64,000 nucleotides of DNA from a virus (IMGVR_UViG_3300035190_001334:64001-128000), one strand, 5' to 3'; shown: positions 7,328-32,919, counted from the stretch's first letter. The notes: generated from the letters alone by a model not told the origin. Program-made: numbers and translations.

Positions 7328-8572
7328 TTATGATAGCAGAGATTGTAAAGCTTCAAGTCTAGCTAAATGTGCTTCTTCGGGTGTGTTGAAACTGCCGACA
7401 CGCTTAGTTTTGTTGTTTACAGATATAACAGAGTAAAACTTGTTGTACTTAGGATACACTCCAACAGGTAATTCTCGCTCTTTTTTAGGTTTGTTAAAAA
7501 GTTCTGCAAAAGATTCATCACCATCATAATAATATTTTTCGGCTTTGATACGATGCTCTCTTGCTTCCTCTTCTGTACCAAAGTTACCTACAGAAAATGT
7601 TTTATTGTTGACTGTAATACAGGCTGTGTAAGTACCATGCCCATTTCTACTGACTCCAACGCCTTTACGCTTTTGGTTAGTTTTAGTTTTAGCTTTTGAA
7701 CGCGCAGCCTCTAATTCTTTCTTAAATTCATGTTGTCCATCCCAATATACTTTCTCAGCAAGACTTCTCACTAGACGCGCTTGCTCTTCAGTTTCGTACC
7801 TACCGAGTTCTGTAGTTTTCCCATTGTAAAAAATACTTGCTGCCCAACTTCCACTTTCAACCAAACGTACTCCTAACCCATAGATTCTGGAGTTAGCTAT
7901 ATACTTACCGTCTTTTTCTACTCCTCTTCTGTGGGTAAACAACTCATCTAATTCTGATTGTTTTTCCGCGATACCATCAATATACAATTCTTCGGCAACT
8001 TTTCGTACTTGTCTTGCTAATTCTTCTGTTCTATATTTACCAAGACAAACTTTTTTATTCGTTCCAATCTCAACCTTTATAACTACACCCCAACAATCAT
8101 CCGCGTATTTTGTTACACCAGACCCACGAACTAATCTAGCTTTTGATAACTTTAAACGTGTCTCTTCTGAAACAGCCTTACCAAAATTAGGATTTTTCTC
8201 TCCTTTATTGTTTTCCGACATCTTCTTTCTTGTATTTTCCGATATAGGAATAATTTCAGCATCAGGATTTGTAATCTTCAATACGTTATAGCATAAAGAC
8301 CAGTCCTCTACGCCATCTAAATAAGTTTGCTCTAATTGTCTAATTTCTTTTACTGTAGCGTTTTCCAAAAGTTCTACAATCTCAAAGAAGAAATTATCTT
8401 CTCCGTTTTTAGTGAAAGAAGCCTGTAGTTGCTTATTACCGTGTTTACCTCTTCTTAATCTTGATAAGTGAGTACTTTTTCTGTAATTGAGATTGTTGCT
8501 TGAACCAATGTAATATTTTCCATTGATTTTATTCGTGATTTTGTAAATTCCAGCCGATTTAGGGAAGTCCAT
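7328..8572 (-). CDS. Free-standing GIY-YIG homing endonuclease with NUMOD3 and four AP2-like repeats
   Basis: GIYKITNKINGKYYIGSS; SEETRLKLS; repeats LGKYRTEELA, LGRYETEEQA, VGNFGTEEEA, VGSFNTPEEA. Confidence 0.88.
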   Translation of the reverse strand: MDFPKSAGIYKITNKINGKYYIGSSNNLNYRKSTHLSRLRRGKHGNKQLQASFTKNGEDNFFFEIVELLENATVKEIRQLEQTYLDGVEDWSLCYNVLKITNPDAEIIPISENTRKKMSENNKGEKNPNFGKAVSEETRLKLSKARLVRGSGVTKYADDCWGVVIKVEIGTNKKVCLGKYRTEELARQVRKVAEELYIDGIAEKQSELDELFTHRRGVEKDGKYIANSRIYGLGVRLVESGSWAASIFYNGKTTELGRYETEEQARLVRSLAEKVYWDGQHEFKKELEAARSKAKTKTNQKRKGVGVSRNGHGTYTACITVNNKTFSVGNFGTEEEAREHRIKAEKYYYDGDESFAELFNKPKKERELPVGVYPKYNKFYSVISVNNKTKRVGSFNTPEEAHLARLEALQSLLS

Positions 8573-9998: not shown

Positions 9999-10907
9999 TT
10001 ATTTGTTGAAGTATGGTTTAATGTGCAAGTGCAAACCAAACAAACGCTTCAATTGACGGTCAATGTAGGGCAGATTGTTTTGATAGATACCAGCAATTTC
10101 ACTGATAACTGCAAAATGGCGCACAGGCTCGTTGGTTAGGTCTACAGGGTCAGGATACAAACCGAGAACTTCTTCAACGTTAATACCGACAATAGTGTTG
10201 ATAGGTAGAGCTTGAGCAGCGTTAGCAGCCAAAGTCACCGAACGAACACCAGTGGTAGCATTTTCAGCACCGATTGCGAGAATCGTACCTAAAGGAGTGA
10301 GATTATCACCTAAGTAACCAGCTTCAGTAGTTTCGACAACAACTTGACCAGCAGCACCAGAGGTAGTGAAGTACACATCATAGCTGTCGTTAGCGTAGAT
10401 AGTAGCTACAGCAGTAGAACCAACTTGAGCGAAGGTAATGCCAGCAGCCAACAGAGCAGCAGCGTTAGCGGTCGCGAAATCAGCAGCAGCACCAGCACCA
10501 GTTTGAGTAGCTCCTACAGTTGCCGAGTAAGTCACACCACCAATCTTGGCAGTAATAACATCACTAGTAGCAAAAGTGCCAACAAACTTGATTCGAGCGA
10601 AACAGTGCTTAGCGTACAGTACATCGCCAACCTTAAATTGAGAACAAGGGGTCTTCAATGAGATAGTGGGAGAGTTAGTAGCGGTCGCAGCGTTTAAGCG
10701 AGTGCGAGGAAGAAAACGGGCAACTCTTTCGCCAGAAGTGCCAGTAGTAGCGATGAAGCTACCTTCAGGAACTGCGGCAATCCCTTCAGAGTTGAGTTGA
10801 ATATCGGCACTCTTAATTTCAACACCATCAATTGCAACTTTCTTAGCTGCGGCGTTGAAAATGATTGCCTTACCGTTACGGATATATTTTTGAGTTGTTA
10901 AATACAT
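9999..10907 (-). CDS. Head decoration/cement protein
   Basis: Immediately upstream of capsid gene; Ala/Thr/Gly-rich; C-terminal 'GIYQNNLP'. Confidence 0.6.
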   Translation of the reverse strand: MYLTTQKYIRNGKAIIFNAAAKKVAIDGVEIKSADIQLNSEGIAAVPEGSFIATTGTSGERVARFLPRTRLNAATATNSPTISLKTPCSQFKVGDVLYAKHCFARIKFVGTFATSDVITAKIGGVTYSATVGATQTGAGAAADFATANAAALLAAGITFAQVGSTAVATIYANDSYDVYFTTSGAAGQVVVETTEAGYLGDNLTPLGTILAIGAENATTGVRSVTLAANAAQALPINTIVGINVEEVLGLYPDPVDLTNEPVRHFAVISEIAGIYQNNLPYIDRQLKRLFGLHLHIKPYFNK

Positions 10908-10922: not shown

Positions 10923-11834
10923 TTATAGTCCGAAATCCAGACCCATAGCAATCAAGTCGCCCTTAGCAGCTTCTTCAAGGCTAGATGAGAAATTAGCAGT
11001 TGCAACTTCTTCAGCGCTAACAGAGAAGTCAGTGAACTGAGTCACATTAGCAACATTACGCAATAGAGAGTAAGCAAACTCCGACATATTGAGTTGTTCT
11101 TGCAAATCACGCGCACCGTTAGTTTGAGCGATACCAGTAAACTGAGCAACTCGTTGGCGAGGGTCAGAGAAGTTACCGATAAGAGCTTCCTTCATTGCAG
11201 GGGTGATAACACCGTCAACAACGTCTTGACTAACACGGGCGTTCAAATCGGTCAGTGCTTGAGATAATTGTGCTTCAAAGTTAGCTTGAGAGAATTGGGC
11301 TTCAAGAGCTTCTTTTTCTGCACGAAGTTTTTGGATTTCGCTAACTACTGTCTTATTGAAATTAGCTTGAATTGCTGGGTTGTATGCCGCAGCGTAATTA
11401 GCAGCGTCTTCAGTCATAGGTTCTTCTGCGCCTCCTTCAGCGCCTTCTGTTGCGTATTGTGCTTCTAGAGCTTGGCGGTCTTGTTCTAACACTCCATCAG
11501 CAACTTCGATAAGTTTATCCAAGTCTTCTTCGGTAGCATCAGGGAATGCAGAAATCATTGCTTCCAAATCTTCGACATTATCAACGATGTTTTCGCCACT
11601 AATGTAGCCAGTTACATCTTCTTCGCTTAATCCAGTTGCCTGAACGAGAGCTTGAATACCAGCACTGATTGCAGGGGAAGTATCCTCTGGGTCAGTAATT
11701 AGGTCAGCAAACTGAGCTTCAATAAGGTCAAGCAAGAGTTCGCCAAAAGCATTGGTTGGATTGAGTTCGGTCGCTTGACCTTCTCCTTCTATACCAGCGT
11801 CCTGAGCGCCTAAATCTTGTTGTTCTTCATCCAT
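10923..11834 (-). CDS. Capsid scaffolding protein
   Basis: Acidic, coiled-coil, upstream of decoration/capsid genes; multiple AxF motifs. Confidence 0.65.
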   Translation of the reverse strand: MDEEQQDLGAQDAGIEGEGQATELNPTNAFGELLLDLIEAQFADLITDPEDTSPAISAGIQALVQATGLSEEDVTGYISGENIVDNVEDLEAMISAFPDATEEDLDKLIEVADGVLEQDRQALEAQYATEGAEGGAEEPMTEDAANYAAAYNPAIQANFNKTVVSEIQKLRAEKEALEAQFSQANFEAQLSQALTDLNARVSQDVVDGVITPAMKEALIGNFSDPRQRVAQFTGIAQTNGARDLQEQLNMSEFAYSLLRNVANVTQFTDFSVSAEEVATANFSSSLEEAAKGDLIAMGLDFGL

Positions 11835-11864
11835 TTTTATTATTTTCGTTTTTAGGATTAAAAC

Positions 11865-11900
11865 AATAATGCCACACTAATTTCTCAGCATGGCATTATT
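11865..11900 (-). terminator. Hairpin (possible terminator) between cargo cluster and scaffold
   Basis: aataatgcca ... tggcattatt inverted repeat. Confidence 0.4.
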
Positions 11901-11933
11901 TATGGCTTTTTCCCGTAACTGACGTAATGACTG

Positions 11934-13607
11934 CTATTCGATTTCTATAGAGCGTGGAACTGTGTTGGGATTCTTGAATGCGTCTGGATTATCCTTGCGA
12001 CGACTCTGTAAACGTTGGTTAGCTTGATAACGATTGACACCAGCGCCAGCAACTGAACCAACTCCACGACCTACACCAGCACCTAATCCAGTCATACCAA
12101 GTACTTTACCTGCACGACCGACCAAACCTGTGCTTCTTCGTTGCTCTTCTGTTTCATTGATACCAGAACCTTCAAGAGCGCCTAGACCCGCACCAACAGC
12201 AGTACCGACATTAGCGGCATTGATTTGAGGAGATAGATTGCCAAAACGATTTGCAGCACCTCTAGCAACTTTTTGAGCGCCATTAACTAAACCAGTAGGA
12301 ATGATGCCAAACGATGCAGACTTACGGATGCTTTTGCTATAACGAGCTTCGTTTTCTTGTTTCTTTTGTGCCAATTTAGCAGCAAGTAGACCACCACCAG
12401 CAAGTGCAGTACCTCCAACACCGATTGCAGCATATTTAGCTGCCTTATCCGTGTCAAGAACTTTAGCTACAGAGTTAAGCGCATCATGAGTACCTACAGC
12501 CGCTTTAGCAGCCCCATAGTTAACTTTGTCTGCAATACCAAAAGGAAGACTTGCGACAATACGATTACCAGTCACAGAAGCTAAATTACCTCCACCAGCC
12601 TTAGTCGCAGCTTTACGAACCACTTTAGCTGCGGGTTGTGTGATTAATTTGCCAGCAGATACAAGACCTTTATTAATTTGGTCGCCAATGCCAAAATTAG
12701 CTTCTTGTTGACGTTTGAGGAAGTTTGCTGATTTGCGGATTTCTTTATTGAAGTACTTGCCTACTGGCTTGCCCGATTCAATCATCGAGTTGATTTCTTT
12801 TACCCCCATACTTGCAGGTACTTTAGGGTCGCGCAATTTCTTTTTCTGCATCTTGCCGCGCAAAGTTGACTCTAAGCTGACGACTCCAGTATTGTTTTGA
12901 GGGATATATGTGCTTCCGTGTTGGATTAGGCGTTGAATTGTAGCTGGGTCTTGGAAATTTGCTGATTTGCGAATCATTTTACTTAACTCTGTAGTTGAAT
13001 TTACGTTTACTGTGTTTGGTGGGATACCTCCACCTGCTTCTTTTTTCATTCTGACTTTACCAAGCAAACTACCAAAAAATTGCTTAGTAGTTTCTATATC
13101 TTGTTTACCTTTGTTAATAGCTTGGTCAATCAACGGTGTTGGCTCAGGTCGTGTAGATTGACGTAGTAGTTCTTCCGCCATCCTAGCTTCTCTTTGGTCA
13201 AGATTCGGAGCTACAACCTCTTGCACTTTATTTTTTACAGCTTCAACTTCCTTACCAACTCTATTAGCAGCTTTACGAACGCCTCTAGGATTTGCAGCTT
13301 CGTGTTGAGCTACAACAGCCTCTCGTCTTCGTAATTCTAGTTCAGGAGCCACAGCAGCTTTATAACGATTTACACCATATCCAGCCCCAGCACCAAGTCC
13401 AGCACCGACAGTAGAGCTTGTCAGCACCTTACCTAAACGATTACCGACATTAGTAGCTCTCTTTTCTGCATCTGATTCAAATATGCCAGCACCTTGTAAT
13501 AGTCCAAGTCCACCGCCCACACCAGCACCAATTTTCACTGCATTAGGTATGGCAGAAAGAAGTGAGGGAGCGAAGCTGGCTGATTTTCGTAGTAGTTTTT
13601 TAGTCAT
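11934..13607 (-). CDS. Modular Gly-zipper polyprotein, putative internal head protein
   Basis: Four (I/L)RKSA[NS]F junctions plus QEANF; two related glycine-zipper hairpins. Confidence 0.6.
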   Translation of the reverse strand: MTKKLLRKSASFAPSLLSAIPNAVKIGAGVGGGLGLLQGAGIFESDAEKRATNVGNRLGKVLTSSTVGAGLGAGAGYGVNRYKAAVAPELELRRREAVVAQHEAANPRGVRKAANRVGKEVEAVKNKVQEVVAPNLDQREARMAEELLRQSTRPEPTPLIDQAINKGKQDIETTKQFFGSLLGKVRMKKEAGGGIPPNTVNVNSTTELSKMIRKSANFQDPATIQRLIQHGSTYIPQNNTGVVSLESTLRGKMQKKKLRDPKVPASMGVKEINSMIESGKPVGKYFNKEIRKSANFLKRQQEANFGIGDQINKGLVSAGKLITQPAAKVVRKAATKAGGGNLASVTGNRIVASLPFGIADKVNYGAAKAAVGTHDALNSVAKVLDTDKAAKYAAIGVGGTALAGGGLLAAKLAQKKQENEARYSKSIRKSASFGIIPTGLVNGAQKVARGAANRFGNLSPQINAANVGTAVGAGLGALEGSGINETEEQRRSTGLVGRAGKVLGMTGLGAGVGRGVGSVAGAGVNRYQANQRLQSRRKDNPDAFKNPNTVPRSIEIE

Positions 13608-13609
13608 GG

Positions 13610-14971
13610 TTATCCTTGGTATCTATTGCGTCCAGATTCTCTCAAAATCTTGGTTGCATGGTAAAGTCTAGAATTGTCTTGCTGACCAGTTAAAGATTGA
13701 GGAATAGCTGTAGGTGCTTGGTAGTCATTGTAACTACCGATTGACCTTGGTGAGTAACCTACTTCTTCTCCTGTTAAAGATTGGGGGATGCCTACAGGAG
13801 ATTGATAATCGCCGTTCCATTGAGGAGGAAGTGGCAGTCTTTCGGAAATTTTATCGCGTAAATACTTACCGCTTTTTAAACCATATTCTTTGGCTTGACC
13901 ACCGTAACCTTCAGCTTGTTGGCGTAAGCCTTCAAAGTCAATATCAGGTGTTTCGCCCTTCAAAGCCTTGTAAGCAAGCAAACCACCACCAGCTAAACCA
14001 GCAAGACCTGCTCCAGCACCCAGACGTTGTTTAACGGAAGAGCCTTTAATTGCATCAATAACACCAAACTCAGCTACAGCTTGAATATATGCACGTTTGA
14101 ATTGAATATAAGTAGAATTATGTTTACGTGTGAATTTTGTCATGTTTTTGTTGTTTTTGTTAAAGTGAGAACCTAGTAAATAAGATGTAGCACCTGCCGA
14201 AGCAAGACCACCTCCTACAATACCCAAACCTGTTAAAGCGGCATTTTTAGTATTTTCGCGATTCAGATTATTTAAGTCATTATAGTACCGATTTTCGGTC
14301 TTTTCTTGTTCGCTGTTGGATAATCTTTTATATTTTTTTGAAGGCTCTATTCTGTTTTTGAATCGGTCTACTTTATTGAGGGCATTGTCATATTCTGTGT
14401 CTTTATTGGGTTGTAAAGAGGCTACAAGATTACCTCCAGCTAACCCGCCTAATACTCCAGAACCAATTATATTTTTATATTCGACGTATTTAGTTAGTTC
14501 TTCTGGAGATAAGTCTTGAACGTTATCAGGTAAAGAAAAGAAATTAGCGAAATGTTGTTTGTCGCCACTGAAATCGTTGTTAAGACCGTAACCTAATCCT
14601 ATAGCACCTCCAACTGCGCCAGCACCTAAAGTGCCAACACCGATGCCTTTAGCTTTATTAAGCCATCTGCTAACTTCTGCATCTGATTCTCTATTGCGAG
14701 TCGAGTCACCAATAACTCTATCTCTCTGAACTCTGAGCTTTTGTAGCTCTCTTATTTTTTGTTTCTCTGGTAGGTTGCTTTCTAAGAGTGCGCGAGATTG
14801 TTGGTCGTAGTCTACATTTGCATCAGACTCTCTACCTAAAGAACGAGCTTTACTTCGATAATAAGCATCTTCTCCCCACTTGTTACCGATATATTTACCA
14901 ATAACTCCGCCACCAAGAGCTAATCCTGCCCCTGCGCCAACTCCACCTAATGCGTAATCTTCAAAGTCCAT
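13610..14971 (-). CDS. Modular Gly-zipper polyprotein, putative internal head protein
   Basis: Five Gly-rich hydrophobic helices; QHFANF and AVAEF junctions. Confidence 0.6.
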   Translation of the reverse strand: MDFEDYALGGVGAGAGLALGGGVIGKYIGNKWGEDAYYRSKARSLGRESDANVDYDQQSRALLESNLPEKQKIRELQKLRVQRDRVIGDSTRNRESDAEVSRWLNKAKGIGVGTLGAGAVGGAIGLGYGLNNDFSGDKQHFANFFSLPDNVQDLSPEELTKYVEYKNIIGSGVLGGLAGGNLVASLQPNKDTEYDNALNKVDRFKNRIEPSKKYKRLSNSEQEKTENRYYNDLNNLNRENTKNAALTGLGIVGGGLASAGATSYLLGSHFNKNNKNMTKFTRKHNSTYIQFKRAYIQAVAEFGVIDAIKGSSVKQRLGAGAGLAGLAGGGLLAYKALKGETPDIDFEGLRQQAEGYGGQAKEYGLKSGKYLRDKISERLPLPPQWNGDYQSPVGIPQSLTGEEVGYSPRSIGSYNDYQAPTAIPQSLTGQQDNSRLYHATKILRESGRNRYQG

Positions 14972-14975
14972 AGTG

Positions 14976-15908
14976 TTATTGATACTTATTAGTTAATTGT
15001 ACATCATCAGCCTGTTTTTGTTTTCTACGCTCGTCATAAGCTTTCTTAAGTGTGTAACCACCATGAACTAGACCGATAGCATTAGCTGCTGCAACTGTTT
15101 CACCTAAACGACTTTTACCTACGTTTGGTAGTGCAGAAGGAATAGGATGTGCAGCTTGTCTTTCTATTTCTAAGCTGCGACCATGAAAGAACCCATCATC
15201 TCTACCCATTTGCTCCTCTAAAGCAGCACGACGTAAAAACGGTTTAGATAAGTCATCGACAAATTTATATTTGCCTTCTGGCTCTACCTTATAAAGCTCA
15301 CCATCTAAAGCTGCCAACCTACCACCGTCCATTGCAGCGTTAAGAGTAGAGTAGAAATTTTTCTGAGGTAATCCGAATTTATATTTGTAGGTAACAGGCT
15401 CATCGTATTCTCTTGTAATTACTAAGGAGGGGTTGACAACACCCTTTTTAGATAAACTTTCATAATTTTGCCTGATGTTCTTGTCACTAATTAAATCTTG
15501 AAAACTAGGGTATCTTGGAATGTTAGATACATCTACATCCTCACCACTGACTCCAGCAGCGTTTGCCGATAGTATTGTTGGGTGAGTGTGAGCCATTTGT
15601 AGATTCTCAAGACCTCCTAAGTTGTTGGGGTAGCCTTTTACCCAAGGAACTATTCTATCAAGTGGAATTGACGTTGAAATAGCTTCTTTACTCGGAAGAT
15701 TAATTGCATCTTTGAAAGTACGATTACCTAGTGTGTTTATGTAGTTCGCAGAAGTATAGCCGACCTCAGAATTTGGATACTTACTGACTAAACCTCGCAA
15801 ACTATTCTCTGCATGGTCTTTTAGGTTAGGGTATTCATCTACAGATTTACCTGTAAGATTTTCTAGATAGTCGTCCCAACTAATACCAAAATTTACAAAG
15901 TGTCTCAT
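14976..15908 (-). CDS. JAB/MPN-like metalloenzyme domain protein, putative head cargo
   Basis: Start MRHFVNF; AHTHP ... PSFQD motif; C-terminal hydrophobic helix and basic tail. Confidence 0.5.
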   Translation of the reverse strand: MRHFVNFGISWDDYLENLTGKSVDEYPNLKDHAENSLRGLVSKYPNSEVGYTSANYINTLGNRTFKDAINLPSKEAISTSIPLDRIVPWVKGYPNNLGGLENLQMAHTHPTILSANAAGVSGEDVDVSNIPRYPSFQDLISDKNIRQNYESLSKKGVVNPSLVITREYDEPVTYKYKFGLPQKNFYSTLNAAMDGGRLAALDGELYKVEPEGKYKFVDDLSKPFLRRAALEEQMGRDDGFFHGRSLEIERQAAHPIPSALPNVGKSRLGETVAAANAIGLVHGGYTLKKAYDERRKQKQADDVQLTNKYQ

Positions 15909-15910
15909 AG

Positions 15911-17611
15911 TTACAAAGCACCCCAATTTACATTTTTCAATCCTGTTCGCAACACAGACTTAACATCACCATTCAAAGCCGCATCAATAATCCGATTACG
16001 AGAACCGTCATCGATTACATCCCCTTTAGCTTTTGCTATTAATGCGCGACGGAGTTGCTTATCCTTAATTGCGTCAAGAGCAGCAAGTTTTTGTGCCTCG
16101 AACACCTCTTCTTGTTGGTCAGCAGCCTTTTTTCTATTGTAGATACCGTAAAGTGTACCTCCAATAGCTAAGCTTGGGGTAATTAGTGGGTCGAAAAAAT
16201 TTGCAGTATTAGAATTGTCGTTGAATTGTAGCTGAGTACCTACTAAGTAGCCTTCCCTAGCTAAGGAGCCTCCTACTAACCCCCCAGCCATACTAGCACC
16301 TAAATACTTGCCAGTTCTACCTACATTTTGGAAGTACTTATCTCTCAAACTTCCTTGTTGAAGTTTTTTTTCTTCGGGAGACAAGTTATTGAATCTTTGT
16401 AATTCATCTACAAATTCTTGGTTTTGGTTTTTAAATTGCTCCCTAGAAGTGCCAGTCAGTCTTCGTGCGACACTCCCACCAAGTAAAGCACCGCCAATAC
16501 CTGAACCTAAATAACCAGCACCATATAGCAACTGAGCATCTTCAGGAGACATAAACTCAGCAATCTTGCCTTTACTTCTAGAATACCGAGTAGTCTTGCC
16601 TTTTCTTTTCTGCACTTCGGCTTGCTGTGCAGGAGTAAGTCTGTCAAGAGGATTATCCGTAATACCTTGAAGTAAAGGGTTGCCAGTAATATTAGCAGCT
16701 TCGCGAATCAAGTTGTCTGCATGGTATTGAGGACTGTCGAAATAGCTAGCTGCAAAGTCTTGAGCATTTTTATCTTTGAGGCTATTTACCTTGTAGGCAT
16801 CAAGCGCTCTTTGTTTGTTGAGCTTAGATAGCAAACCATACCCAGCAACTAATGTACCTCCGATTGCAGCAAGTGGAAGTGCTTTTTCTTTTTTAATGAA
16901 GAAAGGGTTACGAACACCAATCTTAGGAAATGCGAAGTTGGCTGGTGTAACTAAAGGGGCAGCACTAAAAAAGTTGTATGGCACTCTCACCTGAGTTTGA
17001 GGTTGTTGGGCTTGCGCTTGACGTTGTTCCAATAGTAGATTCCTTTTTGCAATTATTTCTTGTACTTTGTCGCGGTGAGCTTGAGCCTGAGCTTGTTTTT
17101 CTTTCTCTGCTTCTTTAGTTTTATGATTTTGATATAGCAAAGCCCCCGCCGCTAAAGGTGCAACAGTTAAACCTCCAAGAGTACCGACAACTGCTGCCTC
17201 ATTAGCCCCAAATTTATCAATTAATTTGTTAGATACATAATTTACAGCAGGAGCAACTAAAGGGAGATTGCTATTTGCATATTTATCCCGAAGTCTTTGG
17301 GTTTCTGCCTTGGCTACTCTAGCTTTTTTAGCTACTGCTCTATCACCTTGAGCATTTCCGATTTCAGTTGATGTTGGCTCAGGGGCTTTAGGTGGCTCAG
17401 AAGCCCGTCTTTCGCGTTCACGCGCTATTTTGGCGCGTTCCTTCATAACAGCTTCTTCATTCATCTGCTGTTGACGAGATTTTCCTCTGGGGCGATTATC
17501 TTTCTGCTTTCTAAAGAAAGGGTCATTCCCCCAGTTAGTTTCCCTCCCCTCCCTATTGTTAGGGGCGTATTTCTGTTGTCTAGCCGCAAACTCAGCTTTC
17601 AAACTTAACAT
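15911..17611 (-). CDS. Modular polyprotein, putative internal head protein
   Basis: KAEF, PANF, IAEF, TANF junctions, each followed by a module with Gly/Ala hydrophobic helices. Confidence 0.6.
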   Translation of the reverse strand: MLSLKAEFAARQQKYAPNNREGRETNWGNDPFFRKQKDNRPRGKSRQQQMNEEAVMKERAKIARERERRASEPPKAPEPTSTEIGNAQGDRAVAKKARVAKAETQRLRDKYANSNLPLVAPAVNYVSNKLIDKFGANEAAVVGTLGGLTVAPLAAGALLYQNHKTKEAEKEKQAQAQAHRDKVQEIIAKRNLLLEQRQAQAQQPQTQVRVPYNFFSAAPLVTPANFAFPKIGVRNPFFIKKEKALPLAAIGGTLVAGYGLLSKLNKQRALDAYKVNSLKDKNAQDFAASYFDSPQYHADNLIREAANITGNPLLQGITDNPLDRLTPAQQAEVQKRKGKTTRYSRSKGKIAEFMSPEDAQLLYGAGYLGSGIGGALLGGSVARRLTGTSREQFKNQNQEFVDELQRFNNLSPEEKKLQQGSLRDKYFQNVGRTGKYLGASMAGGLVGGSLAREGYLVGTQLQFNDNSNTANFFDPLITPSLAIGGTLYGIYNRKKAADQQEEVFEAQKLAALDAIKDKQLRRALIAKAKGDVIDDGSRNRIIDAALNGDVKSVLRTGLKNVNWGAL

Positions 17612-18630
17612 CTAGCTGTACCTCGTACATACTTCTTGGTTGTGCCAATTGACAAGTTGAACTGAGCCAACTTATTACTACCACGCTTATAAGTAGTTTG
17701 TTGCTGTAATTGTGGAATTGTCATGCCACTCTCAGCACCACCTTGCAATTGAGCCTGAGTTTGTGCAGCTTGGTCTTGCTGAGTCATTACGCCAGCTTGT
17801 GCTTGCTGATTCATTTGTTGCATTAACTGAGTCAAACCGAGCAGTTCGATAATCTTGACACTGAACCCATTTAACTGAGAGTAAATCAATTGCAACAACA
17901 CTTCTGGGCTATCAATGTTAATCGCATCGTTGTCATAAGCATTTTTGAGCAAGAGCCACAATTTCTGGCAAATTTCGTTGTATTCGTCTTGAAGGTCGTC
18001 AATTGCTTGGTCATTAGCATCAAGCTCATCCCAAGTTACTGCGTTGCCACTATCTGGTATTCCAGAGAAGTTAGCGGTCATTGCTTTGCCCACTTTTTTA
18101 TGAAATAGTCCCATGTTAGGAATTGCAGGAATAGGTACAAGGCTGAGTTCCATGATGCGATGTTCGTTAGGGTCAAGGTTAAGTCCCATGCTAACGCTCT
18201 TGACACCACTACGCAATGCTTCAATACCTTTAGCTGCTGCAACCTTTACGCCACTTAAGAACATCCCAAGCTTGCCTACTAAATGCTTGGAATTTTGGTT
18301 TGGTAAATCTGCTTCCGTAATTACTTTTGTGAACGCTCGTCCTGAAATACTTCCAATAGTATTTGGAATATCTTTTTTGTGGTCAGCACAAACAGGTACA
18401 ACTGTGCCGCTATCGATAGCTCGGTTGGTATGCTCAACGATTGTATTGAGACGTTCGGGACTAAATTCGTGTTCAACATCAGTACTATCGGTAAACTTGC
18501 CTTCAGTGGCTACAAGAGCCGTGTACTCGTCTTTAATAGGAGTGCCAGAAACCAACACCTGCCCCAACTCAAAGTTGGCTCTTGATGCTGGGGCTTTAAA
18601 ATAAGCGATATTAGGTGAGGTTTTTTTCAT
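17605..18630 (-). CDS. Prohead maturation protease (Mu gpI-like) with C-terminal helical tail
   Basis: EGKFTDS, ADH, SVSMG and ELSLVPIPAIPNM motifs; first gene of the head operon. Confidence 0.75.
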   Translation of the reverse strand: MKKTSPNIAYFKAPASRANFELGQVLVSGTPIKDEYTALVATEGKFTDSTDVEHEFSPERLNTIVEHTNRAIDSGTVVPVCADHKKDIPNTIGSISGRAFTKVITEADLPNQNSKHLVGKLGMFLSGVKVAAAKGIEALRSGVKSVSMGLNLDPNEHRIMELSLVPIPAIPNMGLFHKKVGKAMTANFSGIPDSGNAVTWDELDANDQAIDDLQDEYNEICQKLWLLLKNAYDNDAINIDSPEVLLQLIYSQLNGFSVKIIELLGLTQLMQQMNQQAQAGVMTQQDQAAQTQAQLQGGAESGMTIPQLQQQTTYKRGSNKLAQFNLSIGTTKKYVRGTARC

Positions 18631-20534: not shown

Positions 20535-21092
20535 ATGACACAACTTACACCCGAACCTTACGTCGATACCGTAAGGAAGCAGAAAGAGAAAGACCTTATC
20601 AATGTGACTAAAAAGACGCGCAAGCACATACCAGCTTACGTTTTCCAAGCTCATGCCAATTTACTTGAGCGATTTCCAGACTCAGGACATTTTCTAACTC
20701 CAGCATTTGTCTACCAAACACTTCGCGAAATTACCAAGGCAGCTAAGGCTCAACTATGTGCTGATGAAACTTCGACCATTGACATTTTTGGTTTGGGCAA
20801 ATTAGTACTACTCCGCAAGAAAGCATACAGGAGCGAAGACAAGACCAAGCAGCAACTATATTTGAAGTTCAGGCACTCCAATGTCTTCTTGTATGAAATT
20901 CGCAGACATCACGGTACAGCTACACCAGCCGAACTCAAGATGCTGGAAAAGTCTGACAACTATATGAAGGAATTGCAAGCCAAACGGGAGAAATTTTTAC
21001 GCGAACGAGAAATGAAGAGGAAGGGTGAACTGGATGAACTTGACCCAAGCAATTATTTGAGTCAATTTTCAGGTGTTCTTGACCTTAATTAG
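20535..21092 (+). CDS. HU/IHF-like DNA-binding protein
   Basis: IDIFGLGKL...LKFRHS HU signature. Confidence 0.65.
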   Translation: MTQLTPEPYVDTVRKQKEKDLINVTKKTRKHIPAYVFQAHANLLERFPDSGHFLTPAFVYQTLREITKAAKAQLCADETSTIDIFGLGKLVLLRKKAYRSEDKTKQQLYLKFRHSNVFLYEIRRHHGTATPAELKMLEKSDNYMKELQAKREKFLREREMKRKGELDELDPSNYLSQFSGVLDLN

Positions 21093-24000
21093 ATTGCATA
21101 AGCACTACTAGGTGGTGCAAAGCTTGCACCGTTGTAAAGCGAGATTCTTCGATACACCACAAAAGAATCCAAGTTGATGTTCAAGCCGCTTGTAGTTATT
21201 GCAGTGGCTTGTCCTATTTGTGCAGGTGTATTCCAGTCACGGTACTCGTAGTCATCAGCAGCTTCGTATACTCGAACTCCACCAACATACAACCTTAGTA
21301 TTCCATTTTGTCTTGTCAGAGCAATGTGGTTGAATACAGTCGAGGATAGGGACAAAGCTACAGAAAAGAGAGCAAGCCCAAGTATTAGAGAGCGCCCTAA
21401 GTATAATCGGTCGGCAGAAAAGAACAGTGAGAGTCCTTGTTGTGTGTAGATGTTAACCACCTCACCATTGGTAGCTTGGTCAGTAAGCAGCCAACCCGCA
21501 ATTGTAAAATCGCCCGACAGAAAAGAGAAGTCTGAGTCATTTGGTATTTGCACATAAGCTGGTACACTGTTTTTGGAAATAGGAAAGCTAGCGGCTCCGA
21601 ACTTTTTGGTAACGGTGTCAAGTACCGAGATGTTGCTGGTCAAGGTCTTGGAGCGATAACTTTGGTCAATAATACTGCTATCGAAGTTCAGTAACGTAAC
21701 TATTTTAGCTGGCTGGTAGTAGTCGCGAATGCTTCGCTCGATGGCAGAAAAAGAAGTTGGACTAATCTTGTAGTCCACAATACAAAACATGGCTACACTG
21801 CCTTTTACACTCCTGTCCTCGAACACCCTGTCCTTAGCAATGGAATTGATGGTAACTAGGTCAGTTGAGTTGAAAATGACTACGCTTAACGATTCTTCAG
21901 GTAGCACATAATCACGCTCTCTTTCTGCCCCGTTCGCCCAAACGTCCCCGTAGAAGTCATTTGCCAGTAATTCTCCATTGTTCCCAGAATTGAAAATGTT
22001 GTTGCTATCCTGACCAAATAAGAAAGCTGCACCAGTTTGCCCTGCTTTGCGAATGTAAGCCATGACGAAGCAGTAACCACTACTTGTGCTGGGAGTGCCG
22101 AAGTCGAGGTGCGAAGAGCCATCTATCTCAAATCGAGCCGCAGGTAGTCCATCGAGTTGAGTTGGTGTTGTGTAATTCACTGCGTTCGTCGATATTAATT
22201 CCTGACCATTTGTGCGATACTCATCAAGTTGAAGTATGTTGCCGCTTGATAGTGTAACGGTTTCAGGTGTGACGATGAAAAATGAACTGAAGGTATTAAG
22301 CAGTCCTTTCAAGTTGATGTAAAGCTGATTAGTAAGTAAAGTGATGCTGACGTTAAAACTGAAAGTGACAGACTCGGTAGCTGTGTAGGTTCGGATGGTG
22401 AAACTGATAAAATCGTCGGTCGGGCAAGTGAATGTAAGGTCGTTGCCAGTTATTGTTGCCGAGTAGTGGTTGACCAGTATTTCATAGCTGACTGCATTAC
22501 CAGCAATTTCAGTGACCTTTTTGTCGAGGTTAACAATAACGTCAGAGCTATACCTGAACTCAGTTGAAGTGTTAAACAACAGTAAAGTAGAATCAAAAAA
22601 CTTGTTGGCTAGTAAGTGTGTAGCTTCTGCAAGTTCAGCTTCGCTCAATGCAACAGACCAGCCAATGAAATACAGTAGTTCCCCTTTCAGTTGAGAAGAG
22701 AATCCACTAAAGCCTATTGAAGAAGTTGCATTAGTAGCCGCGATGATTGCGCCGTAGTCTATGGGTTGGCGATAATTAAAAGTATTGACCCCAACTTTGT
22801 TGACTTTTGTGTTCAACTGCGTTATAGCTGTAGTTCCAAACACATCATCACTGGTTCCTGTAGTCCAAAGAACACCATTGGCAAATATATCTGGAAAGCC
22901 GTTAGCCATGAAGCGTTCACCAGTTTGTTTCTGCTTATATACCCAAATGAAGGTTTTGCAATTGACTGAAGTGCCTGAGAGTGAACGAGGATTGAGAGAA
23001 CTATTGGTGATGAAGGAAGAGGTCGTACCGTTGTAAGTTATTTGGTTGACCGAATCGGCTGTGCTGGTGACGTACAGAGGCTTATCAGGTAATCGGCGTG
23101 AGTCTTCCCATTTAGTTATGTTGCCAAAATTATCGGTGTAAATTCCGTAAGGTATGTCATCTACATCTTTTAACGTGGAAAGTGATACCGCTATGTTTGA
23201 TTGTTGTGGTAAGTCAAGAATAAAGGGGTCTGCTATTACAGTTTCTAGTGAAAAACTAAAATAAGACACCATACTATTGCTGTTAGTGATGCTGATGCTA
23301 AAACTACCATCAAAAACTTCAGGTATATAACCTGATAAAACTGAACCTGTGAAGCTTAGTCCTAAGCCACTTGGAGATATATAGCTGTACGAAGTGATAT
23401 CAAAAAATTCGTCAATTGCAATAGTCGCAAAGTCAAAGCTAAAATAAGCCCCAACAAATGCTCTAAATGAAGGTTGAGATGAAATAACTACACCATTGTA
23501 AGCAATATATATTTGAGCTAACTTAGCTTCTACTGATGCCAATATATCTAACGGGCAAGGTGATGATGATGTGATGATTGCAGCTATTTTTCCACGAACA
23601 CTGAAGTTGCTAGTCCCATTTTTACCCCCAAAACCTGTAATAGTTTCATACTCGTTGCTATTGGATATGTTGGTGACACTTAAAATTCTTGAGGTGTTAA
23701 GGGGAACGAACGTTGTTGGTGCTACTGCTCGACTATTTATTCTTGATGTGGCATTGTAAATAGAGTTGCCAGCTAAAGGCTGCTCTGACCAAAGCGAAGC
23801 GCCACCAGAAGGAAAAGCATCATAAAGAAAAGGTGGGTCGCCTAGTGTTTGACGAGGGGCATATATTAGAAAACTACCTGACTCCCTTGTAAGGTAAACG
23901 AGAATAATTGTACCTACATTGATAGGTCTGTTGAAAAATAGTTGTTGATTACCAGTATCTGAGAAGTTTATGCTTGGCTGATTATTAAACTGGCTATCAT

Positions 24001-24241
24001 TAGGTATTAATGTAGGTCTATTGCTTGTAGCTTGTAGATAGTTACCATCGAAAAGCAAGTTGTAAATGGTTTGGACTTGATTGTTGTCTCCAGTAGTACC
24101 TATCTTCGAGAACTCTAGATATTCTGGGTCACATAAATACAGACCATTCAAATCTGGTATTAACTTTGCAACGTCATAAACCTGACTAGTATATGAGTAA
24201 CCACCAGAAAAAGAATGATTAAATGCTGCCGATAATTTCAT
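21089..24241 (-). CDS. Large tail fibre/receptor-binding protein with LamG (ConA-like) domains
   Basis: 1050 aa, Ser/Thr-rich; C-terminal DFTIAGW...FNHIALTR...LYVGG LamG motif; internal repeats. Confidence 0.7.
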   Translation of the reverse strand: MKLSAAFNHSFSGGYSYTSQVYDVAKLIPDLNGLYLCDPEYLEFSKIGTTGDNNQVQTIYNLLFDGNYLQATSNRPTLIPNDSQFNNQPSINFSDTGNQQLFFNRPINVGTIILVYLTRESGSFLIYAPRQTLGDPPFLYDAFPSGGASLWSEQPLAGNSIYNATSRINSRAVAPTTFVPLNTSRILSVTNISNSNEYETITGFGGKNGTSNFSVRGKIAAIITSSSPCPLDILASVEAKLAQIYIAYNGVVISSQPSFRAFVGAYFSFDFATIAIDEFFDITSYSYISPSGLGLSFTGSVLSGYIPEVFDGSFSISITNSNSMVSYFSFSLETVIADPFILDLPQQSNIAVSLSTLKDVDDIPYGIYTDNFGNITKWEDSRRLPDKPLYVTSTADSVNQITYNGTTSSFITNSSLNPRSLSGTSVNCKTFIWVYKQKQTGERFMANGFPDIFANGVLWTTGTSDDVFGTTAITQLNTKVNKVGVNTFNYRQPIDYGAIIAATNATSSIGFSGFSSQLKGELLYFIGWSVALSEAELAEATHLLANKFFDSTLLLFNTSTEFRYSSDVIVNLDKKVTEIAGNAVSYEILVNHYSATITGNDLTFTCPTDDFISFTIRTYTATESVTFSFNVSITLLTNQLYINLKGLLNTFSSFFIVTPETVTLSSGNILQLDEYRTNGQELISTNAVNYTTPTQLDGLPAARFEIDGSSHLDFGTPSTSSGYCFVMAYIRKAGQTGAAFLFGQDSNNIFNSGNNGELLANDFYGDVWANGAERERDYVLPEESLSVVIFNSTDLVTINSIAKDRVFEDRSVKGSVAMFCIVDYKISPTSFSAIERSIRDYYQPAKIVTLLNFDSSIIDQSYRSKTLTSNISVLDTVTKKFGAASFPISKNSVPAYVQIPNDSDFSFLSGDFTIAGWLLTDQATNGEVVNIYTQQGLSLFFSADRLYLGRSLILGLALFSVALSLSSTVFNHIALTRQNGILRLYVGGVRVYEAADDYEYRDWNTPAQIGQATAITTSGLNINLDSFVVYRRISLYNGASFAPPSSAYAI

Positions 24242-25508: not shown

Positions 25509-26493
25509 TAGAAAATGACCCCATATTACGATTTTTGTGTAAAATAACTACTTTTATCTTAACATCATCCTTATATATCAGTAAGGTGTAGGTATTCTCT
25601 GGTTTGCTTATCTTAGGTAAATATCCGTTCTCAAATCTTATATCTGCATCTGCTTTGAAACTTACAATACCAGTAAAATTACTTAGATTGAGAGTGAAAA
25701 ACTTAAGGTGGTTGTTATTAATAACTAGTTGTATGTTCAGTACCTTCACTCCGTTGGTGCAGACTACGTTAGTTTCGGAATGTTGGATAGTGTCAATAAT
25801 GAGACTTGATAGTGGCTGTGTTGCTGATATGTTTTGGCAGTTATATATTAGATTATTAAGTGATTTTCCATTGCAGTTAAGCGCACCTCCAAGTACAGGC
25901 GACCTATCCCACCTAATACTTAATGGAAGCACTTTTTTAGTGTTACCAAAACCCCCTTGATTAGTTGGAGCAAAATTAGATACTAGGCAAGCATAAGGTA
26001 TCGGAGCTAACTCATACTCTATATCATCAAATTTACTTAGTGCTGAAGCTTCAGGGGCATAGTACCACTCTTCGTTTGAGGCATTATAAGTTAGTGCATA
26101 TTTGTTTCGCGCTACCGTATCAACTACATCACTCAGTTGTTTTATCTGATATTCTTTTCTGACCGTGTTAATCACTTGCCCCAAAGAGTTAACTGCCAAG
26201 TAAGTGTCAGCACCACCTATTACTACACCTGAAATATCTCTTAAGTAGATGTTAGGTACGGTTGTCGTTAGTTGCCCTTTGTAAAAACGAAGGATAGCTC
26301 CATCAGAGTATGTATAGTACTTAATAAAGTCTTTAAGGTTGCGTTTGCTATTACCTACAATTGCTACACTATTTTTATATGTCTTTGTGGTTATGTTTTT
26401 AGACATAAATCCTAAAAGCAAAGTGCCTACAGGAATCAGATTGTAGTCAGCAGTATTTTCATTTACTGTATGTGGAAATATGCTAACGCTCAT
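25498..26493 (-). CDS. Tail fibre-associated structural protein
   Basis: QLSDV repeat and D-x-x-P-x-LG-x-x-LN motif shared with 26490-28331. Confidence 0.55.
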   Translation of the reverse strand: MSVSIFPHTVNENTADYNLIPVGTLLLGFMSKNITTKTYKNSVAIVGNSKRNLKDFIKYYTYSDGAILRFYKGQLTTTVPNIYLRDISGVVIGGADTYLAVNSLGQVINTVRKEYQIKQLSDVVDTVARNKYALTYNASNEEWYYAPEASALSKFDDIEYELAPIPYACLVSNFAPTNQGGFGNTKKVLPLSIRWDRSPVLGGALNCNGKSLNNLIYNCQNISATQPLSSLIIDTIQHSETNVVCTNGVKVLNIQLVINNNHLKFFTLNLSNFTGIVSFKADADIRFENGYLPKISKPENTYTLLIYKDDVKIKVVILHKNRNMGSFSNGT

Positions 26494-28331
26494 GAGAATA
26501 TCTGATTACCAATACTGTGGTGAAAGTAATTGAACGACTGCGAGTGAACTACATCTTCAAGACCACCCAAGCGCCCAAACCTCATAGCTGGAGGCTGATA
26601 AACTGCATCTGTATAGCGACCTTTACCTACCGTCAATCGAACTGAATCAAGTCGCCCAATCATACTTATAGTTGCCGAAGAGATAGCTAAATTAGTAACT
26701 CCAGAATCAATCATAAGCCCTGTTTTTTCTGTCAGCAATTGACCATCACAATGCACCTTGATGCTCGTCCCAACTCGCGTGACAGAAAAGAATATGTAGC
26801 GGCTGTTCTGGTATCTAAAAAGTCGGTTGGCGTTATCAAATGTGTAGGTGTTAGCGCCAATAACCAGAGTGAACGTGAGGTTTTGTGTACTGGTTGTTAA
26901 TTGACCTGTATAACTAATCTTAAAGTTGGTTGAGTCAAAATATTTGTGTGTGACTGACGTAGTTGATTCGTAAAATGCTGTGTTTTGGTATTGCAGATAA
27001 AATTCAAATGTGAAGTCGCCTGTGACATTGATAGTGGCAGCAGGGGTGATGGTAATGGTGTCGATGCTGTTATCGAACTCTGCAATTTGGTTAGGGATGC
27101 CGAAGGTCGTGATGTCAGTATCTTGTTGCGTTACCCCTAATATTGCAACTGGAACTGATAAGCTACTCTTGTCCTCATACCAAAGCTTGCTGCGCCATGA
27201 TTGCGCCTCAAAGTCTAGCAGTAGTTTGACGTACTTGAAATAGTCGTCGTATAGTTTAGGAGCCGCCAGTAGTTGTGCTTGGTTATCTACGATGTCATAT
27301 CGCCATGCAGGTATTCCGCCTTGCCCCAGCGCAGCTATATTAAGTGCAGTTGCTGTGACGTAAGTGGTAATTGTTCCCCCGACGTTCTGAACCAGTACTG
27401 TGATGATGTCAGTTTTGCCATTGCCTGATAGCTTAATCGCTCTACCATCTTCGTACTTGACGTTAGTTAGACCGCCAATGAGAATTTGACCAGTGTTTTG
27501 CCGTATCTCAATCAACATCACGGCTGCTTGATTACTCGCTGGCGCGATTTGTGGCAACAAGATACACTGTGATTGAGTTTCTACGGCTACACCCGTTACA
27601 ATCCAATAATCCGCAGTAGCATAAGGCAGATTAATAGTGGGAGCATTACCCACCACTGTACCAATATTAGTAAAAGAATTATAAAGATAATTGCCATTGG
27701 CGTTGAGGTTTGCACCCAATGTCGGATTAGGGTCACGAACAATTTGCAGGTCTTGATTGCTCCAGACAGTCCCGCCAACATCAAGTGAAAGTATTTGGAA
27801 TCGGTGTGGGTCGTCTACTAATCCTGTAGTTGGAGTTATCTCAACGTCATCAAGTTCATTTACTAAGTTGATTCTATTGCGAGGCTTCCATCTTGCTGCG
27901 GTTGCGTCCCAATACAGTACTTGATTGTTTTCCAGTGTGCTTAAATCTACGTCTGTAAGCTGTGATAATGCATAATCTGGACTTGCATTCACATAGGCTT
28001 CACGAAGCGCGTCATAGCGCAAATACTGTCCATTTGTGGGACTGTTTATTTCTACATCACTAAGTCTAGTGAGACTGCCAATCTGCGACGCTGCTGTAAA
28101 ACCGTTGCCTTGCTTGACTAGGAAATCGCCTTCACGCGCATTAGTTATATTGACATCTTGAAGCTCCGTAAACTTCTGAACCCCCTTGCCAATCTCCAGT
28201 ACTTTGCCAGTGAAGTCCTTCGTATAAAGAACTGCTTGCTCATCTTTAATTGCCAAGACAAGTTCACCAACAGCAATTTCGTGTGGTGCTGGTAGTGAGT
28301 CATTGTTGAGAGTATGCTTAAGTATTGACAC
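26490..28331 (-). CDS. Tail fibre protein with LxDV repeats and C-terminal LamG domain
   Basis: Repeats ELQDV, RLSDV, QLTDV, ELDDV; GDFTFEF...DSVRLTVGKGRY. Confidence 0.7.
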   Translation of the reverse strand: MSILKHTLNNDSLPAPHEIAVGELVLAIKDEQAVLYTKDFTGKVLEIGKGVQKFTELQDVNITNAREGDFLVKQGNGFTAASQIGSLTRLSDVEINSPTNGQYLRYDALREAYVNASPDYALSQLTDVDLSTLENNQVLYWDATAARWKPRNRINLVNELDDVEITPTTGLVDDPHRFQILSLDVGGTVWSNQDLQIVRDPNPTLGANLNANGNYLYNSFTNIGTVVGNAPTINLPYATADYWIVTGVAVETQSQCILLPQIAPASNQAAVMLIEIRQNTGQILIGGLTNVKYEDGRAIKLSGNGKTDIITVLVQNVGGTITTYVTATALNIAALGQGGIPAWRYDIVDNQAQLLAAPKLYDDYFKYVKLLLDFEAQSWRSKLWYEDKSSLSVPVAILGVTQQDTDITTFGIPNQIAEFDNSIDTITITPAATINVTGDFTFEFYLQYQNTAFYESTTSVTHKYFDSTNFKISYTGQLTTSTQNLTFTLVIGANTYTFDNANRLFRYQNSRYIFFSVTRVGTSIKVHCDGQLLTEKTGLMIDSGVTNLAISSATISMIGRLDSVRLTVGKGRYTDAVYQPPAMRFGRLGGLEDVVHSQSFNYFHHSIGNQIFS

Positions 28332-32553: not shown

Positions 32554-32919
32554 TTAGAATACTTTATAGAGGATATCGGGATTCAAAGACATTATTTTCC
32601 TTGACTCTGCACTGAGGGGGTTGCGGTCTGAAGTACAGAAATAAAGCTTAGTACGCTCTTCGTTATAATGCATAGCGTAGTGCCTGAGTTGAGAAATTGC
32701 AGACTTTAAGCTACTAGAATCGTTCCTTCTCTTACATTCGATAATGTGCCAACAAATACCACCAGAGGGCAAGTATTCACGCACCAAGCAGTCTATACGT
32801 CCTGTGGGTACTTTTACCTCAGTCTGCACAACAAAACCGCTAGACCGCATAAAATTGGCAACTGCGTCTCTAGTATATTTCTCAAGTGGCAGATTACTTG
32901 TTTTACGCTTAGCAGCCAT
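32554..32919 (-). CDS. PD-(D/E)XK nuclease
   Basis: EV...GRIDCLV...IIECK...AISQLRHY. Confidence 0.75.
   Translation of the reverse strand: MAAKRKTSNLPLEKYTRDAVANFMRSSGFVVQTEVKVPTGRIDCLVREYLPSGGICWHIIECKRRNDSSSLKSAISQLRHYAMHYNEERTKLYFCTSDRNPLSAESRKIMSLNPDILYKVF

Follow-up and report, generated by a model that had tools for sequence, protein, structure and literature searches.

What is encoded between the protease and scaffold genes in the head operon of a large cyanophage, and why are the proteins encoded there punctuated by the same short motif? The locus lies in a 64,000-nt stretch of DNA (the window; positions are counted from its first base), which comprises bases 64001-128000 of the 145,466-bp (~145 kb) phage genome IMGVR_UViG_3300035190_001334. 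Among named phages, the Pseudanabaena siphophages Pam2 (ON014754) and PA-SR01 (MT234670) are the closest; they are ~82-84% identical in head-region DNA and have capsid proteins with 95% identity to the major capsid protein (MCP) of the window. Positions 10923-18630 are the head-assembly operon of a cyanosiphophage of this kind; Pam2 itself has a ~100 nm head and a ~300 nm non-contractile tail (PMC9382816). The protease and scaffold genes flank four open reading frames (ORFs) of 5.68 kb in total, in agreement with the ~5.7 kb of extra ORFs that an initial annotation, made from the sequence alone, had read as polyprotein cargo matured by the protease; we refer to them as cargo ORFs 1 to 4 (Table 1). 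We found that the motif A-x-F is enriched in the proteins of this region, specific in its first and last residues, placed at the boundaries of domains and predicted modules, and conserved in relatives. Our reading, which we consider probable, is that the assemblin-fold protease encoded by the first gene recognises A-x-F and cuts after the Phe, and that the short N-terminal leaders ending in the motif double as tags for entry into the procapsid.

The 2,530 residues encoded by 10923-18630 contain 20 copies of the motif A-[NEQSD]-F, against 2.7±1.6 copies (maximum 9) when residues were shuffled within each protein in 2,000 trials. The rest of the genome, represented by 178 crude ORFs, has 42 copies versus 35.8 expected and thus no excess (Fisher p = 4e-10 for region versus rest), and the share of Phe residues that sit in A[NEQSD]F is 26% in the region and 2.4% elsewhere. 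The head-region enrichment anticipated by the initial annotation is therefore present, and every motif string that it quoted was found where it had been placed. The excess is confined to Ala in the first and Phe in the last position: substituting Tyr, Leu, or Glu for Phe, or other residues for Ala, gives no comparable excess. ANF ranks second in frequency among the tripeptides of the region, and 73 distinct instances from related phages yield the extended consensus [FY][FY]-S-K-x-I-R-K-S-A-N-F followed by [GAF]-x-P. A literature search for the tag strings found no phage paper.

The first gene of the array matches phrog_976 ('head maturation protease', E value 5.7e-5), and a search of its profile against the sequences in the PDB returned nothing meaningful. 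The Mu-like protease family PF10123 (Mu-like_Pro) gave no hmmscan match to the protease or its 22 homologues, nor any in a genome search at E ≤ 10. A remote relation to PF10123 is possible because the authors of the PA-SR01 paper obtained an HHpred match of the orthologous protein to this family (E 4.5e-18). An AlphaFold (AF2) model built from 23 homologues has an overall predicted local distance difference test score (pLDDT) of 63, with the N-terminal domain mostly at 70-90. The best structural match of this domain is T4 gp21 (5jbl; Z 9.2, 127 aa, root-mean-square deviation (rmsd) 3.6), followed by the varicella-zoster virus (VZV) protease (1vzv; Z 9.0, 115 aa, rmsd 3.4) and the human cytomegalovirus protease (8j3s; Z 7.0); the other top matches are helical ones to the C-terminal half. 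The best Foldseek hits are also herpesvirus proteases but are not significant (E ~0.3-1). The modelled fold, of the T4 gp21/herpesvirus assemblin type, supports the head maturation protease that had been proposed for this gene. D83-H84, S147-x-G149, and E161/S163 are invariant in the 23 homologues, and His84 and Ser147 are the likely catalytic pair judging from this conservation.

The motif brackets the predicted protease domain. A leader (residues 1-20) ends in ANF (nt 18571-18579), the protease domain spans ~21-185, a linker carries ANF at 186-188 (nt 18067-18075), and a helical, Q-rich domain (~200-295) is followed by AQF at 322-324 (nt 17659-17667) and a basic 17-aa tail. All three sites are in segments with pLDDT <50 that separate leader, protease domain, helical domain, and tail, and they are retained in homologues down to ~40% identity, as expected from the initial claim that the motif frames this domain. 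Neither the length nor the sequence of the N-terminal region is constant across the 23 homologues (29-93% identity), yet x-x-F is retained (F20 in ≥90%), and many have a second x-x-F upstream; 21 of the 23 also have an x-x-F, mostly [AL]-x-F, ~6-25 residues from the C-terminus. A profile search of 1.84 billion representatives retrieved 269 clusters at E ≤ 0.001, and in ~100 of the 269 cluster representatives A-x-F occurs 17.9 times per 1,000 aa in the leader, 14.1 times in the 40 aa past the domain, and 1.8 times inside it. Some longer homologues (350-440 aa; P0091, P0095, P0112, P0120, P0138, and P0181) have glycine/alanine-rich hydrophobic C-terminal segments that resemble the cargo modules described below, which means that the protease-scaffold protein of other phages can carry a segment of this kind as a direct fusion.

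Three of the four cargo ORFs are polyprotein-like. Cargo ORF 1 has the leader MLSLKAEF and sites ANF 224-226, AEF 351-353, and ANF 470-472, which delimit predicted modules 9-226, 227-353, 354-472, and 473-566. Cargo ORF 3 starts with MDF, contains uncharged glycine/alanine-rich stretches, and would be divided by ANF 142-144 and AEF 300-302 into modules 4-144, 145-302, and 303-453. Cargo ORF 4 has the leader MTKKLLRKSASF, sites RKSANF 216-218, RKSANF 294-296, EANF 303-305, and RKSASF 431-433, and glycine-rich hairpin modules repeated at both ends. Cargo ORF 2 has no internal A-x-F site, only the N-terminal variant MRHFVNF. Full cutting of the four is predicted to give 13 products of 78-303 residues, 12 of which are basic (isoelectric point (pI) 8-11) and most of which carry uncharged Gly/Ala-rich stretches of at least 19 residues. 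The modules matched no known family, with glycine-zipper hints below threshold, and an ESM Atlas search with a cargo module returned unnamed viral clusters and a low-ranked Gly-zipper_YMGG cluster, all under the trust score. Pfam gave no match to ten head-region proteins at E ≤ 0.01, and only sub-threshold hints at relaxed cutoffs of E ≤ 1-5 (Gly-zipper_Omp 0.13, ABC1 kinase-like 0.007). Most cargo modules are basic, have glycine-rich hydrophobic stretches, and resemble no enzyme; only cargo ORF 2 and a kinase-like ORF outside the operon have a faintly enzymatic look.

Cargo ORF 2 probably forms a globular domain with the JAMM-like residues E48...H107-x-H109...S135-x-x-D138. These residues and the tag M[RK]HF[AV]NF are invariant in 9 homologues (45-97% identity). 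The 25 residues from HxH to S are unusually long for a JAMM domain, in which this spacing is usually 7 or so, and Pfam gave no match. The AF2 model is poor (pLDDT 58); RadC (2qlc, Z 4.2), an Rpn11 homologue (6fjv, Z 4.1), and Rpn11 (9wbg_c, Z 4.0) give the longest aligned ranges, yet their scores lie within the noise band. The last ~26 residues (YTLKKAYDERRKQKQADDVQLTNKYQ) are near-invariant in homologues that are only 45-65% identical overall, a pattern that suggests a binding or anchoring role for this tail.

We compared the locus with those of 13 close relatives (11 IMG/VR contigs, Pam2, and PA-SR01). In all of them, a protease of 92-97% identity is followed by a variable set of ORFs and then by conserved scaffold, 302-aa protein, and capsid genes. 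Two distant loci (L014 and L015; protease 45-47% identical) have the same order and keep the motif in cargo and scaffold, and the succession of protease, cargo, scaffold, 302-aa protein, and MCP is kept in 15 loci. In these phages, every cargo ORF begins with a short leader that ends in x-[NEQSD]-F: MLSLKAEF, MRHFVNF, MRHFANF, MRKSANF, MKHFANF, MTKKLLRKSASF, MNKKPLLQKANF, MLSEF, MANF, and MDF. Within the first 30 aa, 25 of 29 distinct cargo N-termini have [AVS]-x-F and 28 have [NEQSD]F, the single one without the latter being an over-extended start call; the background is 12 of 176 other ORFs (p = 4e-19, with homologous ORFs not fully independent). Many relatives have, between the helix-turn-helix (HTH) gene and the protease gene, a ~200-aa ORF that is absent from the window (L003 9089-9724, L004 4464-5099, and a 207-aa ORF in L002). 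It starts with M..QQAEF and has ...FKHFKNF at its extreme C-terminus, a tag copy placed at the other end of a protein.

The initial annotation had asked whether modules are shuffled at A-x-F junctions in related phages. Motif sites there do mark where modules have been inserted or lost, and where they have been joined or separated. Module 354-472 of cargo ORF 1 occurs only here and in one contig (L010), and elsewhere its two neighbours abut exactly. The 78-aa module 219-296 of cargo ORF 4 has end-to-end matches of 80-96% identity in other ORFs or positions of other phages. Three contigs (L006, L008, and L005) have a homologue of the internal linker of cargo ORF 3 (...MTKFTRKHNSTYIQFKRAYIQAVAEF) as the N-terminal leader of a separate ORF, which indicates gene fusion or fission at the motif. 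In whole-protein comparisons, 38.8% of homology breakpoints fall between 15 aa before and 3 aa after a site, versus 13.4±4.1% at random; they cluster in the 15 residues preceding the motif, where the linkers themselves are conserved.

The motif also recurs in the other head proteins in which it had been reported. The scaffold has six A-x-F sites, one of which (A280-x-F282) is 21 aa from the C-terminus, and A230, F232, A280, and F282 are invariant down to 38% identity. The MCP carries LAEF at 400-402, with 13 aa left as a tail; its F402 is invariant, and the sequence beyond it varies, comprising no more than 2-3 residues in distant relatives. The N-terminus of the MCP, MAMSPIESF, was not counted as a leader because I6 and E7 do not vary and distant relatives have Trp instead of the Phe; this Phe may be a structural residue of the capsid N-arm. 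A search for solved structures of the MCP or the 302-aa protein found none. The 175-aa protein has LANF and VAEF, and the former is retained in the distant locus L014.

The published Pam2 data list proteins detected in purified virions by mass spectrometry (MS; Table S2 in PMC9382816). Among those detected are the cargo orthologues gp15 (ORF 1) and gp17 (ORF 4), gp19, the capsid protein gp20, gp22 (the orthologue of the 175-aa protein), and gp23; cargo proteins are thus present in the virions of a close relative. The protease gp14 and the scaffold gp18 were not detected by virion MS, which for gp18 is as expected of a removed scaffold. We rebuilt 191 Pam2 proteins and scored their N-termini for the tag. 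The strict pattern ^M.HF..F is found in gp37, gp39, gp41, gp42, gp44, gp52, gp118, gp186, and gp187, and seven of these nine are virion-detected versus 20 of 182 others (odds ratio 28, p = 1.6e-5); with a looser tag the counts are 11 of 23 versus 16 of 168 (p = 2.7e-5). Tagged proteins detected in virions include gp15, gp17, gp189, gp39, gp41, gp42, gp44, gp118, gp186, and gp187. The residues directly after the motif are ARILNAK... in gp189, GYVKQANK... in gp42 and gp44, and AAKQQKYAPNNR... in gp15.

The strict-tag genes of Pam2 are located in the tail region, among replication genes, and beside the terminase gene, and this scatter over the genome indicates that the tag is portable. Most of them have no homologue in the genome of the window, so the tagged repertoire differs between close relatives. 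The initial proposals of a portable tag and swappable cargo thus hold up, in that virion MS of Pam2 detects cargo orthologues and most of the dispersed tagged genes. Five Pam2 proteins (gp39, gp41, gp42, gp44, and gp187; L017 39106-43325 and L016 1012-1971) are paralogous small basic virion proteins, also without homologue in the genome of the window, that share the signature M[QEI]HF[AVT][NH]F followed by G[YI][VT]K[QE]..NK. The window has a tagged gene of its own outside the head operon. Its 313-aa product has the leader MNITDF, a weak kinase-like domain (Pfam ABC1 kinase-like, E 0.007, under the curated cutoff), QHFANF at 189-194, and a glycine-rich hairpin module that resembles those of the cargo ORFs. 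Pam2 gp189 (leader MSNF), an MS-detected virion protein, shares 57% identity with this product. Directly upstream is a gene for a small PD-(D/E)XK nuclease (32554-32919, minus strand; PF08011, E 2.3e-8), and the same arrangement is found in Pam2 (gp188 and gp189). A basic 166-aa protein that starts with MTDF is a weak member of the tagged set because its leader is very short.

Table 1. Coordinates, strand, and characteristics of the head-operon genes and of further tagged or neighbouring genes in the window.
Feature	Position	Strand	Remarks
MuF-like gene, 530 aa	18904-20496	-	upstream of protease
Small HTH gene			between MuF-like gene and protease; opposite strand
Head maturation protease, 341 aa	17605-18630	-	first gene of array; fused to scaffold-like C-terminal domain
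Cargo ORF 1, 566 aa	15911-17611	-	pI 9.9
Cargo ORF 2, 310 aa from its ATG	14976-15908	-	JAMM-like
Cargo ORF 3, 453 aa	13610-14971	-	pI 9.3
Cargo ORF 4, 557 aa	11934-13607	-	pI 10.4
Acidic scaffold, 303 aa	10923-11834	-	pI 4.1
302-aa protein	9999-10907	-	between scaffold and MCP
MCP, 415 aa	8735-9982	-	phrog_29, E 1.3e-19
Head-region protein, 175 aa	6267-6794	-	basic N-terminal part; LANF 71-73, VAEF 91-93
Tagged kinase-like protein, 313 aa	31610-32551	-	outside head operon
Basic protein, 166 aa	60492-60992	-	starts MTDF; 90% identical to Pam2 virion protein gp146

Under the reading that we favour, the 341-aa protease would recognise A-[NESQD]-F and cleave after the Phe, which would be the P1 residue. 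It would free its own protease domain from the leader, the scaffold-like domain, and the basic C-terminal tail, and would detach and fragment the acidic scaffold, chiefly at the conserved site 21 aa from the C-terminus. Short N-terminal leaders would be removed from all cargo proteins, and the three polyprotein-like cargo ORFs would be split into ~12 basic modules of 9-24 kDa, most with a glycine-rich hydrophobic stretch, whereas only the leader of the JAMM-like protein would be trimmed. The cut modules would be retained in the head. An N-terminal M-x-H-F-x-N-F or M-x(2-11)-A-x-F would act as a portable ticket into the procapsid, like the capsid-targeting sequence of T4, and by this proposal genes anywhere in the genome could add products to the head. 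The packaged modules might neutralise the charge of the DNA, build a channel through the envelope, or, if they are ejected as effectors, act in the cell.

A bolder version is possible but doubtful. In it, the x-H-F-x-N-F/A-x-F peptide of six to seven residues would be an encapsulin-like loading signal and at the same time an assemblin-type cleavage site with Phe as P1, so that any tagged gene could be plugged into the head. The fast-evolving load of at least 12 basic pieces with glycine-rich hydrophobic stretches would rebuild a channel through the cyanobacterial envelope, and the JAMM-like and kinase-like enzymes would be injected and act on the host or its defences before phage genes are expressed.

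Several observations weigh against the proposed processing and targeting. HMMER assigns the protease to no Pfam protease family. The cargo protein gp16 and the tagged proteins gp37 and gp52 were undetected in Pam2 virion MS. The MS table gives presence or absence only, and its association with the tag places tagged proteins in virions, from which neither a location in the head interior nor entry driven by the tag follows. In a strict window of ±4 aa the breakpoint signal is weak (11.5% versus 5.8% in the null, null maximum 16%), and the p-value of the breakpoint test is optimistic because the wider window was picked post hoc and the phages in the comparison are relatives. The ...FKHFKNF at the C-terminus of the ~200-aa ORF of relatives is as compatible with a docking peptide as with a cleavage product.

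This last point leads to the alternative that survives best, although we consider it unlikely: the motif would be a docking or cargo-loading peptide that is never cut and, in the manner of encapsulin targeting peptides, binds a pocket located on the scaffold, inside the capsid, or on the protease, with many copies providing multivalent anchoring of cargo and scaffold. Such a peptide would account for the prediction of virion presence by an N-terminal tag and for a tag copy that ends an ORF in relatives. It sits less well with a motif that lies at junctions that are gene boundaries in other phages and that, throughout a wide family, flanks the domains of the protease itself within disordered linkers. 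The A-x-P1 form matches the sites of proteases with the same fold, and the scaffold site 21 aa from the C-terminus is where assemblin-type systems cut: in herpesviruses and T4, the scaffold is released by cleavage near its C-terminus. Finally, an uncut scaffold anchored at six sites would be hard to expel, yet the scaffold is undetected in Pam2 virions.

We regard it as very improbable that the sites are cut by another enzyme, such as a host protease. This possibility has a precedent in Staphylococcus phage 80alpha, where capsid and scaffold leaders (...NLQHF'A) are cut after Phe by the host cysteine protease Prp (PMC9405229), and the tag M-Q-H-F-A resembles LQHF'A. Set against it, the phage, unlike 80alpha, encodes an assemblin-fold protease, and it is at the domain boundaries of that very protein that the motif is conserved. 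A metagenome-assembled genome (MAG) of a cyanobacterium carries a relative of the protease; no Prp (PF04327) was found in it, in 101 genomes sampled from its phylum, or in the phage, the true host genome not having been searched; the same search found Prp in Bacillus, Lactococcus, and Thermotoga as positive controls. A host Prp-type protease is unlikely because none was found in the 101 sampled cyanobacterial genomes.

That the enrichment is a functionless by-product of tandem module duplication or composition is hardly credible and largely refuted: the modules are paralogous and several sites of cargo ORF 4 share a longer repeated linker (...IRKSANF), but composition-preserving shuffles fall far short of the observed count (2.7 versus 20), unrelated proteins (the protease, the acidic scaffold, and the JAMM-like, kinase-like, and 175-aa proteins) have the motif too, individual positions stay invariant at 38-45% identity between variable flanks, and the tag tracks virion presence.

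The head-operon genes discussed here are all on the minus strand and tightly packed, and other genes interrupt or adjoin the array in some phages. A 414-aa GIY-YIG homing-endonuclease-like ORF with repeated AP2-like modules (7328-8572, minus strand) is located between the capsid gene and the next head gene; it is missing from Pam2 and PA-SR01, and differing versions are found in several IMG/VR relatives. In PA-SR01, a gene annotated as a DEAD/DEAH-box helicase is inserted on the opposite strand between the cargo ORFs and the scaffold gene (L002 7186-8982), and two IMG/VR contigs (L009 and L013) show a comparable gap, without forward ORFs. In distant relatives (contexts of homologues P0048 and P0014), an intein (PF14890) is present in the MuF-like gene that lies upstream of the protease, and a terminase gene with Hint/intein matches is found in locus L015 (1-46). 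The Pam2 record labels gp3 and gp54 'botulinum neurotoxin type B/A'. Pfam returned nothing credible for the window orthologue of gp3 (26490-28331, minus strand), and a 1050-aa neighbour (21089-24241, minus strand) matches only a concanavalin/laminin-G lectin fold (E 4e-9), with a faint Toxin_R_bind_N in distant relatives. Judging from these matches, the toxin names look like transfers from a shared binding-domain fold rather than evidence of a toxin.

If the proposed processing is correct, it extends protease-coupled cargo loading to large freshwater cyanosiphophages; to our knowledge, detailed work on internal or ejected head proteins is limited to T4, P22/T7-like phages, and jumbo phages. 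It would also bring specificity for Phe to a protease fold for which the sites described in phages (T4, phiKZ, and SPN3US) end in Glu. A-x-F together with an N-terminal M-x-H-F-x-N-F constitutes a checkable rule that already predicts which Pam2 proteins occur in virions, and the search flagged ~270 metagenomic protease clusters in which the A-x-F rule can be examined. As a candidate handle, the tag might allow foreign proteins to be loaded into cyanophage heads and so aid infection studies of bloom-forming cyanobacteria.

Several known systems share parts of this arrangement. T4 gp21 with the internal proteins IPI-III and Alt has the same protease fold and short N-terminal leaders that end in the protease motif; the packaged internal proteins of T4 come from genes that are not necessarily in the head operon, and its scaffold is removed by cleavage. 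The sites of gp21, [LI]-x-E, end in Glu, whereas P1 would be Phe here. The present system also differs in its cyanobacterial siphovirus setting, its multi-module, polyprotein-like cargo with glycine-rich hydrophobic stretches, and the fusion of the protease to a scaffold-like domain. Herpesvirus UL26 assemblin has the same architecture, with a protease domain, a site, a scaffold-like domain, a second site, and a short C-terminal tail (protease, R site, scaffold, M site, and tail, the sites being (V/L)-x-A'S), but there is no sequence similarity, and herpesviruses are not known to have cargo polyproteins. Mu gpI/gpZ is likewise a protease with an in-frame scaffold-like C-terminal part, encoded upstream of the capsid gene; unlike in Mu, the PF10123 HMMER profile is unmatched here, and we know of no A-x-F rule or cargo array in Mu. 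The structure paper on the Mu-like phage JBD30 gives no protease site.

In 80alpha, short N-terminal leaders of capsid-assembly proteins are cut after Phe (...LQHF'A) as proposed here, but by a host cysteine protease tied to ribosomal protein L27 instead of a phage-encoded protease. The cargo-loading peptides of encapsulins are short terminal peptides that similarly direct diverse cargo into an HK97-fold shell; unlike the motif described here, they are not known to be cut or to be reiterated within polyproteins. The motifs of the giant-phage proteases phiKZ gp175 and SPN3US gp245, which act alongside ejection and inner-body proteins, have the same P3-x-P1 form. SPN3US gp245 cuts after A-X-E at several sites within an N-terminal propeptide and shortens its own C-terminus, and processing extends to many head proteins (PMC10052503). 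It is the closest documented parallel, with the same layout of Ala at P3 followed by P1, and with Phe here where Glu is found there. Long propeptides are removed in those phages. In the present one the predicted removal concerns short leaders, the stretches from site to site look like products that are kept, and the genome is one of 145 kb rather than that of a jumbo myovirus. The papers on Pam2 and PA-SR01 do not contain the word 'protease' and do not discuss a scaffold gene or any motif. The principle is already known from T4, phiKZ, and SPN3US, and what is new is the rule ending in Phe, the array of polyprotein-like cargo with glycine-rich hydrophobic stretches, the setting in a large cyanosiphophage, and a tag that sorts a published virion proteome.

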